The notes under the pieces are model-generated. The model ran no database searches. It was given only the letters and a program-made list of their open reading frames with translations, and was not told the origin of the DNA. Below are positions 8,020 through 46,161 of a stretch of 64,000 bases of DNA, piece after piece (position 1 is the stretch's first letter; every line of letters begins with the position of its first letter). The stretch is from the NCBI GenBank assembly GCA_049317285.1, contig JBMOIO010000004.1:2994-66993 (forward strand). The letters run 5' to 3'. The position numbers were made by a program, and so were the translations under genes. The DNA is from Minisyncoccia bacterium (GTDB lineage Bacteria > Patescibacteriota > Minisyncoccia > Phycocordibacterales > UBA9973).

Positions 8020-8268
8020 ATGGGATATGTGTACATACTTGAATGCGCCGACGGCACACTCTATATAGGAAGCACGACCGATCTTATCCGCCGTATTCAC
8101 GAGCACAATACTGCAAAAAACGGCGCCCACTACACAAAAATCCGCCGGCCGGTAGCCCTTCGCTATAGCGAGGAGTTACCCACGATTGGCGAAGCCCGCT
8201 CTCGCGAAGCAGCACTCAAGCGCCTCACTCGAGCGCAAAAGCAAGCACTGCTACCAGTTTTTTCTTAA
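8020..8268 (+). CDS. GIY-YIG nuclease family protein (small stand-alone, UPF0213-like)
   Basis: MGYVYILECADGTLYIGSTTDLIRRIHEH shows the GIY...YIG...R...E pattern; 82 aa. Confidence 0.75.
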   Translation: MGYVYILECADGTLYIGSTTDLIRRIHEHNTAKNGAHYTKIRRPVALRYSEELPTIGEARSREAALKRLTRAQKQALLPVFS

Positions 8269-8313
8269 GGAAAATTTCATGCTGTGTATTTTACACTTTG
8301 GGTATCGTACCCG

Positions 8314-8373
8314 CGTGGGCGGTCCGATACTGCGCAACAGCGGCTTCGGTCGGCTAGTTTCGGCCCGCCCACG
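8314..8373. repeat. GC-rich 60-nt hairpin element 3' of the GIY-YIG gene (CGTGGGCGG ... CCGCCCACG arms)
   Basis: Perfect 9-bp terminal inverted repeat enclosing 42 nt; shares the GGGCGG/CCGCCC motif with the hairpin inserted in the tRNA duplicate at 44865..44913. Confidence 0.35.
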
Positions 8374-8444
8374 AGTGTATGATGCATATTCTAGAAGTGC
8401 TATACTGAAAAGGTAATTAGTAACCTAGAAGAGAATTTATACAT

Positions 8445-42395: not shown

Positions 42396-43637
42396 ATGTC
42401 GATCACCTCGATTGCTACGTACACTATTACGTTTTTGGCAGTATATGTCCAAGTATTTATCCTTATAACGTTTTTTGAGCGCCGAAAAGACCTCAGGGCA
42501 CAAACCAGCGACGACCGCTTGGCGATTACTCATTTTCCGAGCGTGACTATTATCATGCCGTGCTGGAACGAGTCAAAAACAGTGCATGGCACTGTTGAAA
42601 GCCTTCTTGCGCTCGACTACCCAAAAGAAAAATTATTCATCACTATCATTGATGACGGTTCGACAGACAATACCTGGGAAGAGATGCAGAAATACAAAGA
42701 CCATCCTCAGATCAGTTTGTATCACACAGAGAACGGAGGGAAGCATGTCGCGGTAAATTTTGGTATCGACAAGGCGACAACGGATTTGATCGGGTGTTTG
42801 GACGCAGACTCATTTGTCGCACCGCACGCTCTTACCGACATGGTGCGCATTTTCAACAACCGCCCCGATGTGATGGCGGTTGCACCGACACTGATTGTTC
42901 ACGGCCCCAAAAATATTCTGCAGTGGGCGCAGAAAGTGGAATACAATATGAGCGTGTATCTCAAAAAGATGCAGGCATTTATGAATGCGATCCATGTGAC
43001 CCCTGGGCCGTTTTCTGTATTCCGACGTGAAGTGTTTGAAAAAATCGGAAAATTTAAAAAGGCGCACGGCACCGAAGACCAGGAAATCGCGTATCGCATG
43101 CAGGAAAACCACATGAAGATCGAGCACTGCCCGACCGCGTATGTGTACACGGTTACCCCCGACACAGTGAAAAAGCTCTATACACAGCGCCTGCGATGGA
43201 TTTATGGCTTTATCCAAAACACTATCGACTACCGCCGGTTGATACTCAATCCAAAATATGGAAACTTCTCCCTCTTCACTGTCCCAGCGGGTGTGATCTC
43301 TATTACTGCTACGGTGTACCTCTTTTTTGCAGCAATATACAATATTATTGTCTATATAGCCGAAGTGGTTACCCGGTGGAGTATTGTTGGTTTCACTAAT
43401 TCATTTCCAAGCTTTGAATTTGACTGGTTGTACATCAATACAAAAGCGCTCGGCATGGTGACGATTATTTTGTACTCCCTCGTCCTTATTTCTATGATTG
43501 TCGGCTCACGTATCGCAAAGCAAAAGCTCTCGTGGCACATTATTTCGTTTATGCTGATCTATAGTATTATCGCGCCGTTTTGGTTGATGCGCGCGGTGTG
43601 GAACAGTATTACTTCTAGTCAGCCAAAGTGGCGATAA
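42396..43637 (+). CDS. GT2-family processive beta-glycosyltransferase (PgaC/NodC/cellulose-synthase-like membrane synthase)
   Basis: DDGSTDNT, CLDADS (DxD) and QRLRW (QxxRW) motifs with flanking TM helices. The listed ORF starts at 42348; an extended -10 TGCTATAGT just upstream of the MSITS start at 42396 suggests that start. Confidence 0.75.
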   Translation: MSITSIATYTITFLAVYVQVFILITFFERRKDLRAQTSDDRLAITHFPSVTIIMPCWNESKTVHGTVESLLALDYPKEKLFITIIDDGSTDNTWEEMQKYKDHPQISLYHTENGGKHVAVNFGIDKATTDLIGCLDADSFVAPHALTDMVRIFNNRPDVMAVAPTLIVHGPKNILQWAQKVEYNMSVYLKKMQAFMNAIHVTPGPFSVFRREVFEKIGKFKKAHGTEDQEIAYRMQENHMKIEHCPTAYVYTVTPDTVKKLYTQRLRWIYGFIQNTIDYRRLILNPKYGNFSLFTVPAGVISITATVYLFFAAIYNIIVYIAEVVTRWSIVGFTNSFPSFEFDWLYINTKALGMVTIILYSLVLISMIVGSRIAKQKLSWHIISFMLIYSIIAPFWLMRAVWNSITSSQPKWR

Positions 43638-43638
43638 T

Positions 43639-44328
43639 ATGAATTTTTTTAACCGATACAAATGGAGTAAATACCTTCTCGCTTTTTTCCTCACCGCTGG
43701 CATTTTTGCTGGTGCGCTATTTTTGAGTAACTATATTACTGGGCGAAAACTTCAAAATATCCGCGAACTGCAGGACCGTGTGGCAACCGATATTCTCTCT
43801 TCTGAAACTCAGCTGAACTTGGTGAAAGACCTTTCTTGCGAAGATGTTGGTAATACCTATCTTTCTAGTGAGATTGCCGACCTTGCAGAGCGAATCACTT
43901 ATACGGAAGAAAACGGAACCTCGCCTGAAGATTCGCTTGAGCTGAAGAAACAGTATTCTATTTTAGAAGTAAAAGACTTTGTGCTTTCAAAACAAATCGC
44001 CGAGCGCTGCAACAATCTTCCTGTTACCATTTTATATTTCTATACCGATAAAAATATCTGCCCGGACTGCGTGAAGCAAGGGTATGTGCTCGACGCACTG
44101 CGCAACAAATACGACAATGTCCGTATCTATTCATTTGATTCAAAGCTTGATCTGACGACGATTAAAACCCTAAAGACAGTCTACGGTATTAGCGACCAGC
44201 TCCCTGCATTGGTAATAGACGGCGTGACAGTCAACGGCTTTAAATCACTCGATGAGATTGCCGCAGTCCTTCCGAGTGCTATCACCAACCCTGCTCCAAA
44301 AGCGCCTGTAGTTTCTAAAGATCTTTAG
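43639..44328 (+). CDS. membrane-anchored protein with a CxxC (CPDC) motif, possibly thioredoxin-like; translationally coupled to the GT2 gene
   Basis: N-terminal TM; ILYFYTDKNICPDCVKQG resembles a thioredoxin-fold CxxC context; its start is 1 nt after the GT2 stop. Confidence 0.4.
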   Translation: MNFFNRYKWSKYLLAFFLTAGIFAGALFLSNYITGRKLQNIRELQDRVATDILSSETQLNLVKDLSCEDVGNTYLSSEIADLAERITYTEENGTSPEDSLELKKQYSILEVKDFVLSKQIAERCNNLPVTILYFYTDKNICPDCVKQGYVLDALRNKYDNVRIYSFDSKLDLTTIKTLKTVYGISDQLPALVIDGVTVNGFKSLDEIAAVLPSAITNPAPKAPVVSKDL

Positions 44329-44351
44329 ATAGTGATAAAAAGGGGTGGAGA

Positions 44352-44393
44352 AATACCACCTCATACTCAAAAATATGCTATCGCAAGATTTTG
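44352..44393. promoter_or_regulatory. imperfect palindrome related to the 11544 palindrome
   Basis: ATACTCAAAAATATGC-TATC-GCAAGATTTTGAGTAT shares the AAAATCTTGCTATAGCAAGATTTT core. Confidence 0.3.
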
Positions 44394-44495
44394 AGTATTG
44401 GAAAGAGAAAAAAAGCCGCTCTATGTCAGATCGAAAGACCCTCGGAGGGGAGAGCCCTCGGGTTCGAATCTGACACAAAGAGGTCTACCAAATAA

Positions 44496-44523
44496 TAAAA
44501 CCCCTAGATTAACCAGGGGTTTT
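44496..44523. terminator. bidirectional terminator between the CxxC gene (+) and tRNA-Thr (-)
   Basis: AAAACCCCTagattaaccAGGGGTTTTT. Confidence 0.55.
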
Positions 44524-44529
44524 TATTAT

Positions 44530-44605
44530 TGGAGCCGCTTGTCAGACTCGAACTGACGACCCTCACTTTACAAAAGTGTAGCTCTACCAACTGAGCTAAA
44601 GCGGC
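44530..44605 (-). tRNA. tRNA-Thr (anticodon TGT)
   Basis: The reverse complement GCCGCTTTAGCTCAGTTGGTAGAGCTACACTTTTGTAAAGTGAGGGTCGTCAGTTCGAGTCTGACAAGCGGCTCCA folds as a cloverleaf with a 7-bp acceptor stem, D and T arms, a TGT anticodon in a 7-nt loop and an encoded CCA. Confidence 0.8.
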
Positions 44606-44844
44606 ATAGGGGAGATATGCTCTTTTAAAAATCTTCTTCCCGCCGCGCTCTTGAAGTATAACTCCCTTTTGCGTGCACTAAGAATATCTTTAAATGTTTC
44701 GGTATAGATGACTGATATGTCAGTCATAGAACGCGTTGTTTGAGTATGCCCCCGCTTGTGCTCGGCAATTCTTCTTTCAAGGTCATTTGTCATTCCCTTA
44801 TAGAATTTTCCCGATGCATCTTGGAGAACGTATACGATATACAT
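44596..44844 (-). CDS. GIY-YIG nuclease family protein (second copy), overlapping the 5' end of tRNA-Thr by about 10 nt
   Basis: MYIVYVLQDASGKFYKGMTNDLERRIAEH has the GIY...YKG...R motifs. The start is taken at the internal Met of listed ORF 44596..44862. Confidence 0.65.
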   Translation of the reverse strand: MYIVYVLQDASGKFYKGMTNDLERRIAEHKRGHTQTTRSMTDISVIYTETFKDILSARKRELYFKSAAGRRFLKEHISPMPL

Positions 44845-44848
44845 AGAA

Positions 44849-44926
44849 TGTAGCTCTACCAACTCCCGCCCGAACGACTTGAACAGAGCTTCAGCGTCGT
44901 TCAGTCGGGCGGGGAGCTAAAGCGGC
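44849..44926 (-). repeat. partial duplicate of tRNA-Thr nt 1-29 interrupted by a 49-nt GC-rich hairpin
   Basis: TGTAGCTCTACCAACT at 44849..44864 plus GAGCTAAAGCGGC at 44914..44926 equals tRNA positions 44577..44605. The hairpin CCCGCCCGAACGAC...GTCGTTCAGTCGGGCGGG at 44865..44913 is inserted in the D-loop. Confidence 0.7.
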
Positions 44927-44984
44927 GTACCCGAGTGTTAATAAATTAACCCTCGAGTTTTTTCATTATAATGAAAAAACAATT

Positions 44985-45371
44985 TTATGCAACTATTTTC
45001 TTTCGGCGGGTTTTTGGTTTCTCACCTACGTCCTTTGAACTTGAAATGCTGTGAAGGAAGTATGAGGAAGGGCCGTTTTCAAGCCCGGTGAGCACATCAT
45101 GCTTTTGAAACAGTGGTGCCGCTTTCGGAAATACGCGAACAAACGCTTTTGCCAAGCCCGAGTTCCCCCAATTGAACACACGGCGACTGTAGAGCCCGCC
45201 TGCATAGTAGCTGCGGCGGGTGAGACGAATGACACGGTCAACCTGGCGGAGCGCTACGCGGTCAAGGGTCGTGTGTTCACGCGCCTCGCTCTCATGCCAC
45301 CACAGAAGCATGACAGAGAGCCAAAAGAGGACAATAAGTACAGCAAGGAGGATAAGGAGCGTTGTAATCAT
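44985..45371 (-). CDS. hypothetical membrane protein
   Basis: N-terminal TM (LLILLAVLIVLFWLSVMLLWW); no motif. Confidence 0.4.
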   Translation of the reverse strand: MITTLLILLAVLIVLFWLSVMLLWWHESEAREHTTLDRVALRQVDRVIRLTRRSYYAGGLYSRRVFNWGNSGLAKAFVRVFPKAAPLFQKHDVLTGLENGPSSYFLHSISSSKDVGEKPKTRRKKIVA

Positions 45372-45384
45372 ACAACAAAGCTAC

Positions 45385-46161
45385 TTATGCTACGGTATAA
45401 AGCACAAACTTTTCGACTGTTGCTCCATTGTCTTTTGCAAACTGTGCAATTGTTTTTTCAGGAGTCTTAAAGAATGGCTGATCGAGGAGAATTTGCTCTT
45501 TGAAGAATGCATTGATTTTTCCTTCAAGGATTTTTGCTTTCATGTCTTCTGGCTTGTCAGAGTTTTCAACTTCTGCCTTCAGCACTTCCATAACGTTTGT
45601 TCTGTTTTCCTCAGAGATTTCACCTTCTGAAAGAAACGCTGGCTTCATCGCAGTCACATGCATTGCAATATCTTTTGCAACTTCAGCAGTTCCGCCATTG
45701 AGCACTACCACTGCAGCAGTTTTGCCGGTGTGGTGAGTATAGGCACCAACAGCATCGCCACTGATTTCTTCCACAGTACCAAGTTCGATCTTCTCACCAA
45801 TTTTCAACACTACATCACTGATAAGGGCAGGAGAAGTATCGCGCATAGCGTCGACGCCACTTTCCCATGCTATGTCAGCAAGCTTGTTCAACAGCGCCAC
45901 GAAGTCTTCGTTTTTTGCGACGAAGTCAGTTTCGCAGTTCAGGATGAGAGTGAGCGCGCGCTTTCCGTCAGTGCGCACCACTACTGTACCGTCTGAAGCA
46001 TCACGGTCGCCCTTTTTCGCAGCGATATCAGCACCTTTCTTCTGAAGGAGGATGATTGCTTTTTCCATGTCGCCTGCTGCTTCTTCAAGCGCTTTGCGGC
46101 ACTGCATGACACTGATACCTGTCTTGTCCCGAAGTTCTTTTACTTGTTCTGTAGTGATCAT
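45385..46161 (-). CDS. tsf: translation elongation factor Ts
   Basis: MITTEQVKELRDKTGISVMQCRKALEEAAGDMEKAI is the UBA-like N-terminus of EF-Ts; start taken at the internal Met of the listed ORF. Confidence 0.9.
   Translation of the reverse strand: MITTEQVKELRDKTGISVMQCRKALEEAAGDMEKAIILLQKKGADIAAKKGDRDASDGTVVVRTDGKRALTLILNCETDFVAKNEDFVALLNKLADIAWESGVDAMRDTSPALISDVVLKIGEKIELGTVEEISGDAVGAYTHHTGKTAAVVVLNGGTAEVAKDIAMHVTAMKPAFLSEGEISEENRTNVMEVLKAEVENSDKPEDMKAKILEGKINAFFKEQILLDQPFFKTPEKTIAQFAKDNGATVEKFVLYTVA

Follow-up and report, generated by a model that had tools for sequence, protein, structure and literature searches.

A GIY-YIG nuclease cassette with companion hairpins at tRNA genes of Patescibacteria, a probable family of selfish elements

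The closest working analogue of the element described here is SegB of phage T4, a protein of ~220 amino acids (aa) with a DNA-binding domain. SegB is a GIY-YIG homing endonuclease encoded in a tRNA gene cluster; its recognition site is a motif conserved in tRNA genes, and break repair spreads its gene along with the tRNA genes nearby (PMC2330249). Our subject is a locus in a 64,000-nucleotide (nt) stretch of DNA from a Minisyncoccia bacterium (contig JBMOIO010000004.1; the whole stretch is hereafter the window), in which the gene for an 82-aa GIY-YIG nuclease runs into an intact tRNA-Thr(TGT) gene and is preceded by a hairpin-split copy of the first 29 nt of the same tRNA. We interpret this locus as an occupied site of a family of selfish, homing-type elements of Patescibacteria with companion mobile hairpins, a reading to which we assign a probability of about 0.6. 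The evidence that carries it is the anatomy of the locus, its recurrence across a family, the polymorphism of the syntenic locus among relatives, the clean insertion of the hairpins and the purifying selection on the nuclease gene.

SegB and the cassette have in common a GIY-YIG nuclease gene embedded among tRNA genes. However, SegB is a phage protein that recognises a T-arm motif, and its locus lacks the duplicated tRNA fragment, the stop codon within a tRNA and the companion hairpins, whereas the cassette protein is small and chromosomal, belongs to Patescibacteria, and is nearer to UPF0213 and Slx1 in sequence and fold. Integrative elements that target tRNA genes are similar in that they insert into a tRNA gene and keep it functional by partial duplication, but they use a tyrosine integrase and duplicate the 3′ end; the cassette has no integrase, a 5′ duplicate, a variable left junction and sometimes a whole tRNA. 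Repetitive extragenic palindromes with their associated tyrosine transposases (REP/RAYT) and the IS200/IS605 elements resemble the cassette in their short, bulged, imperfect palindromes beside a small nuclease-type gene, in the lack of target duplication and in the use of structured DNA that is prone to be single-stranded. They differ in relying on an HUH tyrosine (Y1) transposase with covalent intermediates, where the only open reading frame (ORF) of the cassette is GIY-YIG, and REP elements are dispersed genome-wide, whereas the cassette hairpins occur almost only in dead tRNA copies beside the gene. The GC clusters of yeast mitochondria, the byp elements and the Rickettsia palindromic elements are small GC-rich hairpins that invade genes, RNA genes included; they have no dedicated adjacent nuclease gene, their sequences are unrelated and they have no specific association with tRNA fragments. 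[quoted passage not shown] These come from the same bacterial group, with no tRNA association, fragment duplication or hairpin family reported, and may be the rRNA counterpart of the tRNA cassettes. A paper on tRNA introns of Patescibacteria (mSystems 2026) makes no mention of GIY-YIG genes, hairpins or duplications. In the literature that we searched, the coverage of which is incomplete so that an earlier description is possible, we found no description of a tRNA-linked cassette with a 5′ duplication and a hairpin family. The kind, nuclease-driven selfish elements, is known, and this combination would be new; the cassettes apparently form a large and hitherto undescribed family of Patescibacteria.

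The tRNA-Thr(TGT) is the sole tRNA of the whole window according to ARAGORN and Rfam. The nuclease ORF on the same strand overlaps it by 10 nt, such that the stop codon TAG of the ORF is U8-A9-G10 of the tRNA (Table 1). The unit between the upstream fragment and the tRNA measures 321 nt and contains a single 82-aa ORF. The hairpin splits the fragment between nt 13 and 14 (13|14), the boundary of the 5′ strand of the D stem and the D loop, and weak tRNA-like similarity may extend beyond the fragment to about nt 36, just before the ATG. The duplication is exact over 13 + 16 nt and the same split pattern is found in dozens of unrelated loci; a match of this form cannot, judged from the sequences, be due to chance. 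An earlier note, written from the letters of the window and a list of its ORFs, had described much of this layout, and our results agree with it on the tRNA on the minus strand (ARAGORN and Rfam), the ORF with its last codons in tRNA nt 1–10 (Pfam and coordinates), the second copy of nt 1–29 (exact in both parts), the near-palindromic insert of 49 nt (which folds as a bulged hairpin) and a minimal unit of about 320 nt that codes only for a small nuclease. The insert does split the tRNA copy as the note said, but it lies at the stem–loop boundary given above and not inside the D loop, and a further partial copy of tRNA-Thr, 95 nt downstream of the intact gene, had been missed.

An independent Logan assembly (SRR30676221) has the same order of tsf, orf128, the 82-aa GIY-YIG gene and the gene for a 229-aa protein; the arrangement is therefore not an artefact of the assembly of one metagenome-assembled genome (MAG). 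A promoter-like site (TTGCAT-16 nt-TATAAT) lies ~40 nt upstream of the tRNA fragment, and was missed by a consensus promoter scan because its −35 element matches the consensus in just 3/6 positions. The gap of 20 nt between hairpin and ATG leaves no room for a further promoter, and the closest aligned empty relative (L081; L and P numbers are our own labels for loci and proteins) has TATAGT ~40 nt upstream of its tRNA-Thr. The site is probably the original tRNA promoter, which would now drive fragment, hairpin, ORF and tRNA as one transcript. Rfam gave no match except the tRNA, either at positions 43500–46000 with E up to 1 or in the whole window at gathering thresholds. We rejected a group I or group II intron in the tRNA, given the absence of an Rfam ribozyme match, the completeness of the 3′ tRNA and the nature of the upstream piece, which is a duplicate and not an exon.

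To place the locus among relatives, we scanned metagenomes with the Tsf protein of the window and obtained a synteny set with 44–75% Tsf identity. The relatives keep the order rpsB, tsf, small ORF, tRNA-Thr(TGT), with the orthologous tRNA in L081–L094, and on contigs that are long enough the convergent gene for the 229-aa protein and a glycosyltransferase family 2 (GT2) gene follow the tRNA. Thirteen syntenic relatives have the tRNA but neither the GIY-YIG gene nor the hairpin. The small ORF lies 30–72 nt from the tRNA in these empty relatives and orf128 lies 59 nt from the 5′ fragment in the window; the matching distances indicate that the 5′ fragment marks the ancestral start of the tRNA. 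The flanks of the window are too diverged from those of the empty relatives for DNA alignment to fix the boundaries of the insertion. Two loci (L184 and L185; Tsf 50% identical) are occupied at the same syntenic tRNA-Thr by a nuclease that is 60% identical (P0056), in the layout nt 1–13, hairpin, nt 14–27, ORF, tRNA, with the same 13|14 site. In the Tsf tree, each occupied lineage is nested among empty ones, which implies at least two gains or several precise losses. Judged by gene order and this tree, the cassette is a derived, patchily distributed insertion and the state of the locus is polymorphic. The earlier note had suggested looking in related genomes for an empty site and for polymorphism in presence and absence, and both are borne out by 13 empty syntenic loci and 2 occupied lineages.

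The nuclease is 100% identical to a protein named GIY-YIG nuclease family protein from a Minisyncoccia MAG (P0001), and has ~100 close relatives of 78–84 aa in Patescibacteria. It matches Pfam PF01541 over residues 7–75 (E = 1.5e-10; 41.6 bits versus a cut-off of 22.6). Five residues (Y5, Y15, G17, R25 and E61) do not vary among 31 family sequences, at least 90% of which also have H29; we take the five to be catalytic from the example of I-TevI and UvrC. The AlphaFold2 (AF2) model (predicted local distance difference test, pLDDT, 89.5) has the topology beta-beta-alpha-beta-alpha-alpha of the GIY-YIG fold, and Foldseek matched it to UPF0213 (1zg2, 1ywl), Slx1 (6seh) and the N-terminal domain of UvrC (1yd5). 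The UPF0213 proteins EF2693 and BH0048 rank nearest in structure, followed by Slx1 and then the UvrC N-terminal domain, and the same two proteins are the best sequence matches (EF2693, 1ywl, E = 4.9e-9; BH0048, 1zg2, E = 2.4e-7). The cassette protein resembles the UPF0213/COG2827 proteins (EF2693, BH0048 and the Escherichia coli YhbQ type) as a single domain of ~80–100 aa; it differs in that the profile match ends at residue 66 and in a basic, conserved C-terminal helix, Y(F/L)KSAAGRRFLK, that is specific to the tRNA-linked clade. Slx1, the next-best solved fold (6seh; TM-score 0.65 on the query), is a eukaryotic protein with an extra zinc-finger domain that works with Slx4, and it cuts branched DNA, which would fit insertion at stem boundaries and loops. 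The NCBIfam model grpIintron_endo matches residues 4–42 only, with 18.5 bits, below its cut-off of 56. The 82 aa comprise the catalytic domain alone; the C-terminal DNA-binding domain with linker of the I-TevI/Seg type is absent. By comparison with Slx1 and UPF0213, a protein of this size that lacks such a domain more likely recognises structure than sequence, and site-specific nicking by the predicted nuclease at the D-loop sequence of tRNA-Thr is plausible. The ratio of nonsynonymous to synonymous differences per site (pN/pS) is 0.07–0.18 in eight family pairs, values that indicate that the nuclease gene is under purifying selection. PADLOC returned no defence-system match.

We searched 185,579 species genomes (one genome per species) and found 495 relatives of the nuclease; the loci of the best 80 of these were examined together with the window (81 loci, 88 ORFs). 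The ORF ends inside a same-strand tRNA gene in 63/88 cases, and another 14 stop at most 30 nt before one. The overlap is 10 nt in 46 ORFs, 15 nt in 9, 23 nt in 7 and 11 nt in 1, so all three reading frames occur, and the 10-nt class uses the TAG of the tRNA at nt 8–10. The partner tRNAs belong to 10 isotypes (Ala, Asp, Thr, Val, Ile, Phe, Arg, Lys, Pro and Met), with at least 19 isoacceptors. In 56/80 loci, the first 8–22 nt of the same tRNA recur exactly within 160 nt upstream of the ORF. Given these copies and the ORFs that end in tRNA genes, the window has the canonical architecture of the family, and the expectation in the earlier note that the gene would be found elsewhere beside tRNA fragments holds in many loci. 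Nearest-neighbour ORFs share their tRNA type in 41/80 cases versus 8.4 expected (permutation); the cassettes therefore mostly keep one tRNA type and switch rarely. The motif TAGCTC at tRNA nt 8–13 is present in 59/77 targeted tRNAs versus 54/89 neighbouring tRNAs, a biased background sample, and we rejected sequence specificity of targeting for the D arm, given that TAGCTC is also common in the neighbours. The 77 adjacent tRNAs fall into only 9 isotypes, which is suggestive at most.

Cassettes also occur in tandem arrays (L032, 800–2400; L011, 990–1670; L075, 2990–3750; L041; L063). The array of L032 has four ORFs, and in L011 an exact 310-nt unit of fragment, hairpin and ORF is repeated twice. 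The arrays are consistent with unequal crossing-over between the tRNA-derived direct repeats.

A palindrome with the ends CCCGCCCG...CGGGCGGG interrupts the upstream tRNA copy in nearly every locus. The hairpin of the window, which the earlier note described as interrupting the tRNA copy, is not incidental; it belongs to a conserved and separately evolving family of GC palindromes that accompanies nearly every cassette. Its members are 29–59 nt long and are built of an inner stem, a bulge of 3–4 nt on one arm and a variable loop (mean DNA folding energy of −14 kcal/mol for 64 distinct copies), and they form sub-families such as TCCGCCCGGATGAAC...GGACGGG and CCCGCCAGAATGAC...GGGCTGG. As DNA, the hairpin of the window folds with −17 kcal/mol (z = −4.75, 0/200 shuffles as good), and it is the single copy in 64 kb. 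Removal of the hairpin restores the tRNA sequence exactly in 37/38 mappable cases, and the insertion of hairpins therefore involves no duplication or deletion of the target; we rejected a miniature inverted-repeat transposable element (MITE) of a DDE transposon, as no target base is duplicated in these 37/38 insertions. Hairpins are inserted most often at 9|10, 13|14 and 21|22, where the two strands of the D stem begin or end; the anticodon loop (35|36, 36|37 as mapped, and 37|38) and the T stem or loop are further sites. Hairpins can be nested, with one in the apical region of another (L069, L025, L078), up to four can interrupt one fragment (L060, L070), and some lie downstream of the tRNA. 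Both orientations occur (50 versus 23).

In two pairs of loci the hairpins are identical (32/32 and 37/37), with synonymous differences per site (pS) of ~0.5 between the ORFs and flanks that are ~58% identical; the arms are thus conserved far beyond neutral DNA. In a further pair, the hairpins at the shared 9|10 site differ in both subtype and orientation. At two related tRNA-Val loci (L005, 2948–2984; L010, 2948–2984), the 37-nt hairpins at the same site are exact reverse complements, a pattern that indicates in-place inversion or excision plus re-insertion. The hairpin family is absent from 80 loci without a cassette (~0.5 Mb) that were selected by an unrelated gene. On viral contigs, the hairpin pattern has 23 matches, of which 21 are unrelated GC-rich sequence in high-GC contigs. 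The two true copies, on IMG/VR contigs (L163, 12837–12869; L176, 12244–12279; CCCGCCCGAACGACTG...CAGTCGGGCGGG), adjoin other small hairpins and have no adjacent tRNA or GIY-YIG gene. We also observed small hairpin families unlike the CCCGCCCG type, GGCCGACGTGTTAGTCGGCC and TCCCGATCGAAGCATCGGGA (L024, 2858–2900; L006, 2905–2945), which break a tRNA fragment of an earlier layer that lies upstream of the present one.

The junctions of the cassette suggest what moves. The junction of ORF and tRNA is fixed, 4–6 codons after the conserved K74, and family members differ in that of fragment and ORF (tRNA nt 15 to nt 47); with a fixed right and a variable left junction, the conserved module is the ORF followed by the tRNA. 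In L060 and L025, the acceptor strands of the upstream fragment and of a hairpin-riddled remnant downstream are complementary to each other, and the acceptor stem that they share differs from that of the intact tRNA between them. In L003, L056 and L072, an intact tRNA directly follows the ORF and is itself followed by a hairpin-bearing remnant (nt ~7/10–76); in L003 the two differ throughout. L024 has two fragment layers from successive events. These sequences show that the cassette can sometimes import a whole foreign tRNA gene (L060, L025, L003), which goes beyond the replacement segment of a tRNA that the earlier note had it carry. Its proposal of integration into a tRNA gene with partial duplication is upheld by the empty relatives, but the footprint is not of the integrase type, with no integrase, a 5′ repeat and a variable left junction. 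Fragment and tRNA of the window are identical over nt 1–29, which is compatible with either a regenerated or an imported intact copy. Ahead of the hairpin, the fragment matches the tRNA fully in 32/48 loci, whereas the part after it is perfect in only 7; this pattern would suit ongoing gene conversion as well as a function as homology arm. ARAGORN calls some hairpin-disrupted remnants tRNA genes (L003, 3343–3418; L066, 3270–3342; L025, 2061–2135), and the false call in L003 has its anticodon at position 38.

Under the homing-type reading that we prefer, the core of the element is the GIY-YIG gene (78–84 aa) fused to the 5′ end of a functional tRNA gene, and it sits in a resident gene for that type of tRNA, whose 5′ part (here nt 1–29) stays upstream as a dead fragment. 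A complete tRNA is always kept, regenerated or brought in directly 3′ of the ORF, and the host loses nothing. In the window, the ORF appears to have no promoter of its own and would probably be transcribed from the old tRNA promoter; with its stop codon inside the tRNA, cleavage by RNase P would yield a stop-less message, which could, we speculate, keep the nuclease scarce. As for cleavage specificity, repair pathway and the role of the hairpin, the nuclease would cut structured tRNA DNA, the hairpin or both, and repair of the break would copy ORF and tRNA from an occupied allele, with the tRNA sequence as portable homology. The right end would be set by tRNA homology, giving a fixed junction, and the left end by short homology or annealing in the 5′ fragment, giving a variable one. 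Hairpins insert cleanly at single-strand/duplex junctions and loops of folded tRNA DNA and survive only in dead tRNA copies. By splitting the upstream direct repeat, a hairpin would hinder deletion of the cassette, and it may be a substrate of the nuclease itself.

Several observations weigh against this interpretation. Known GIY-YIG homing enzymes have a DNA-binding domain, which this protein lacks, and both its cleavage activity and its target are putative. An intact tRNA beside the ORF keeps the full putative target, such that the immunity of the occupied allele to cutting lacks an explanation. Relatives of the protein are absent among 2.9 million viral contigs, which leaves the route of transfer without a carrier. 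ORFs closer than ~80% identity are nearly always at the same tRNA type, no near-identical copies were found in different contexts (P0056, P0034 and the neighbours of the window each have one context) and all of the copies seen are old; vertical descent with precise loss could therefore account for much of the distribution. At one locus (L027), the ORF is intact but there is no hairpin. Hairpin subtype agrees with ORF clade in 25/46 cases versus 36% expected, and at chance level if the tRNA types differ, so co-evolution of the two is marginal only and was rejected.

A more far-reaching version, which we advance only tentatively, is a hitherto unrecognised class of two-part mobile elements in which a minimal, structure-specific nuclease would read folded DNA (the tRNA cloverleaf and its own bulged GC hairpin) and not a sequence, would bring about the clean insertion of hairpins at stem boundaries and in loops, and would replace the resident tRNA by a linked copy. 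If true, the resident tRNA would be destroyed and the host would depend on the copy of the element, a natural form of ‘cleave and rescue’, and the class would be a hydrolytic-nuclease counterpart of REP/RAYT and IS200/IS605.

A further possibility, to which we give odds well below even, is that the hairpins are the primary, non-autonomous mobile elements and the GIY-YIG protein is their mobilising enzyme (REP/RAYT- or MITE-like). The nuclease would nick hairpin loops or junctions in single-stranded DNA, and the tRNA duplications would be collateral products of repair that survive only because a working tRNA was restored; this overlaps with our preferred explanation and differs in what is primary. 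It draws on the clean insertion of hairpins without target duplication, their nesting (L069, L025, L078), their clustering within a few hundred nt of the ORF and the conservation of their arms far above neutral expectation. Closely related ORFs also have hairpins of independent positions, numbers and subtypes (L024 versus L069, L015 versus L050), and the two true viral copies (L163, L176) lie away from any tRNA. However, where a hairpin lies and which way it points mostly follow ORF lineage and tRNA type by inheritance, no dispersal is seen in the sampled loci, with one hairpin in the 64 kb of the window, and in-place inversion (L005 versus L010) needs no transposition. GIY-YIG enzymes hydrolyse DNA without a covalent intermediate, and could not transfer strands unaided.

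The strong purifying selection on the protein would also suit a domesticated host gene that is co-transcribed with the tRNA, with fragment and hairpin as a leader that governs expression or processing (such as an RNase III site, a 5′ stabiliser or a hairpin-neutralised decoy). The ORF is part of the transcription unit of the tRNA, which in 63/88 cases supplies the stop codon, hairpin and pre-hairpin fragment are conserved, and the cassettes persist for long at the same tRNA type. We nevertheless consider domestication unlikely, as the cassette is absent from 13 syntenic relatives, the closest ones included, has at least 19 different isoacceptors as partners, and occurs in tandem arrays (L032, L011) and as serial invasions with layered tRNA debris (L024, L060); the hairpins are found in both orientations, downstream of tRNAs, nested and in multiples; and the window already has a separate, stably placed UPF0213 gene (8020–8268).

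As tRNA genes are classic integration sites and a direct repeat of the tRNA 3′ end lies 95 nt downstream, a decayed integrase island or prophage with the GIY-YIG gene as left-over cargo was also considered. This is very improbable: there is no integrase gene between fragment and tRNA in the window or in the 80 loci, the whole unit is ~320 nt, the ORF is flanked by a repeat of nt 1–29, from the 5′ part of the tRNA and not its 3′ end, the same compact architecture recurs hundreds of times, and the 3′-end repeat comes from a different element that is equally common at tRNAs without the gene. An artefact of assembly or binning, such as a chimeric join at repeated tRNA sequence, to which MAG contigs are open, is scarcely credible, given the same gene order in the independent Logan assembly and equivalent structures both in several Joint Genome Institute (JGI) samples and in 80 loci of unrelated studies.

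Table 1. Positions of the cassette and of adjoining features in the window.
Feature	Position	Strand	Basis or remark
Promoter-like TTGCAT-16 nt-TATAAT, overlapping the end of orf128	44965–44992	-	Read from sequence
Dead 5′ piece of tRNA-Thr before the hairpin (nt 1–13), GCCGCTTTAGCTC	44914–44926	-	Exact match
GC-rich bulged palindrome ‘H’, 49 nt, CCCGCCCGACTGAACGAC...GTCGTTCGGGCGGG	44865–44913	.	Between tRNA nt 13 and 14
Dead 5′ piece of tRNA-Thr after the hairpin (nt 14–29), AGTTGGTAGAGCTACA	44849–44864	-	Exact 16-nt match
TTCT spacer between tRNA piece nt 14–29 and ORF	44845–44848	-	
Gene for the 82-aa GIY-YIG nuclease (ATG at 44844, stop TAG 44598–44596)	44596–44844	-	Pfam PF01541
Intact tRNA-Thr(TGT), functional copy	44530–44605	-	ARAGORN; Rfam tRNA 64.7 bits
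Intrinsic-terminator-like hairpin 3′ of the tRNA	44497–44523	-	11-bp stem, then T run
Separate tRNA-derived remnant, short version of element ‘X’	44414–44476	-	Sequence comparison with the tRNA

The downstream copy of tRNA-Thr belongs to a different kind of structure. Nucleotides 54–73 of the tRNA recur at 44435–44414 (19/20 matches and an insert of 3 nt), and ahead of them, at 44476–44462, the 3′ side of the T arm is present as an inverted copy; the whole is probably a remnant of an element that lies outside the GIY-YIG cassette. The full form, element ‘X’, stands 3′ of a tRNA and its terminator and is built, in this order, of an inverted 3′ side of the T arm, a structured core and the tRNA 3′ end, from the T loop on, as a direct repeat. 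It is found at many tRNA genes of Patescibacteria (L010, 3330–3490; L020, 2290–2440; L029, 1600–1750; L051, 3330–3480; L084, 6280–6560), with cores of the type AAGGGGTCGGGAAAACGGGAGTTTTCCCGTGGYGGAA and of a second type, GAGGCGGGGTCGC...TGTGACC. Rfam has no match for element ‘X’, which may be a miniature integrative element or an unknown RNA gene. Its 3′-end repeats occur at 14/68 tRNAs with the GIY-YIG gene versus 11/84 without; at such equal frequencies we rejected the downstream repeat as proof of whole-tRNA carriage in the window.

The window has a second GIY-YIG gene (8020–8268, plus strand). Its product of 82 aa is an ordinary UPF0213 protein and shares 37% identity with the tRNA-linked nuclease. 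It belongs to a very large and highly conserved family (2373 matches) and has no adjacent tRNA. A pseudouridine synthase context is common to this gene and L203, the sole close homologue with context retrieved; a more distant member of the UPF0213 family (P0195) has one, different context on all of its contigs. We rejected the gene as another cassette and regard it as an ordinary, stably placed UPF0213 gene. It is followed, within 8300–8390, by a GC-rich hairpin of 76 nt (GTGGGCGG...CCGCCCAC; −52 kcal/mol, z = −4.5) for which Rfam has no match.

A very small nuclease with a preference for a structure or a site could serve as a reagent, and hairpin-disrupted tRNA debris will inflate tRNA counts in annotations of Patescibacteria. 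The cassettes raise the questions of how nuclease-based elements spread when the target gene itself is the portable homology, of whether tRNA genes are exchanged horizontally along with such elements, and of how GC-rich hairpins invade genes for structured RNA, to be compared with the unexplained short insertions in CPR rRNA genes. If confirmed, the cassette would be among the smallest autonomous selfish units known, one that lives on essential tRNA genes without killing them, and Patescibacteria, with genomes among the smallest of bacteria, would hold hundreds of copies of a selfish unit of ~320 bp with an enzyme of 82 residues.

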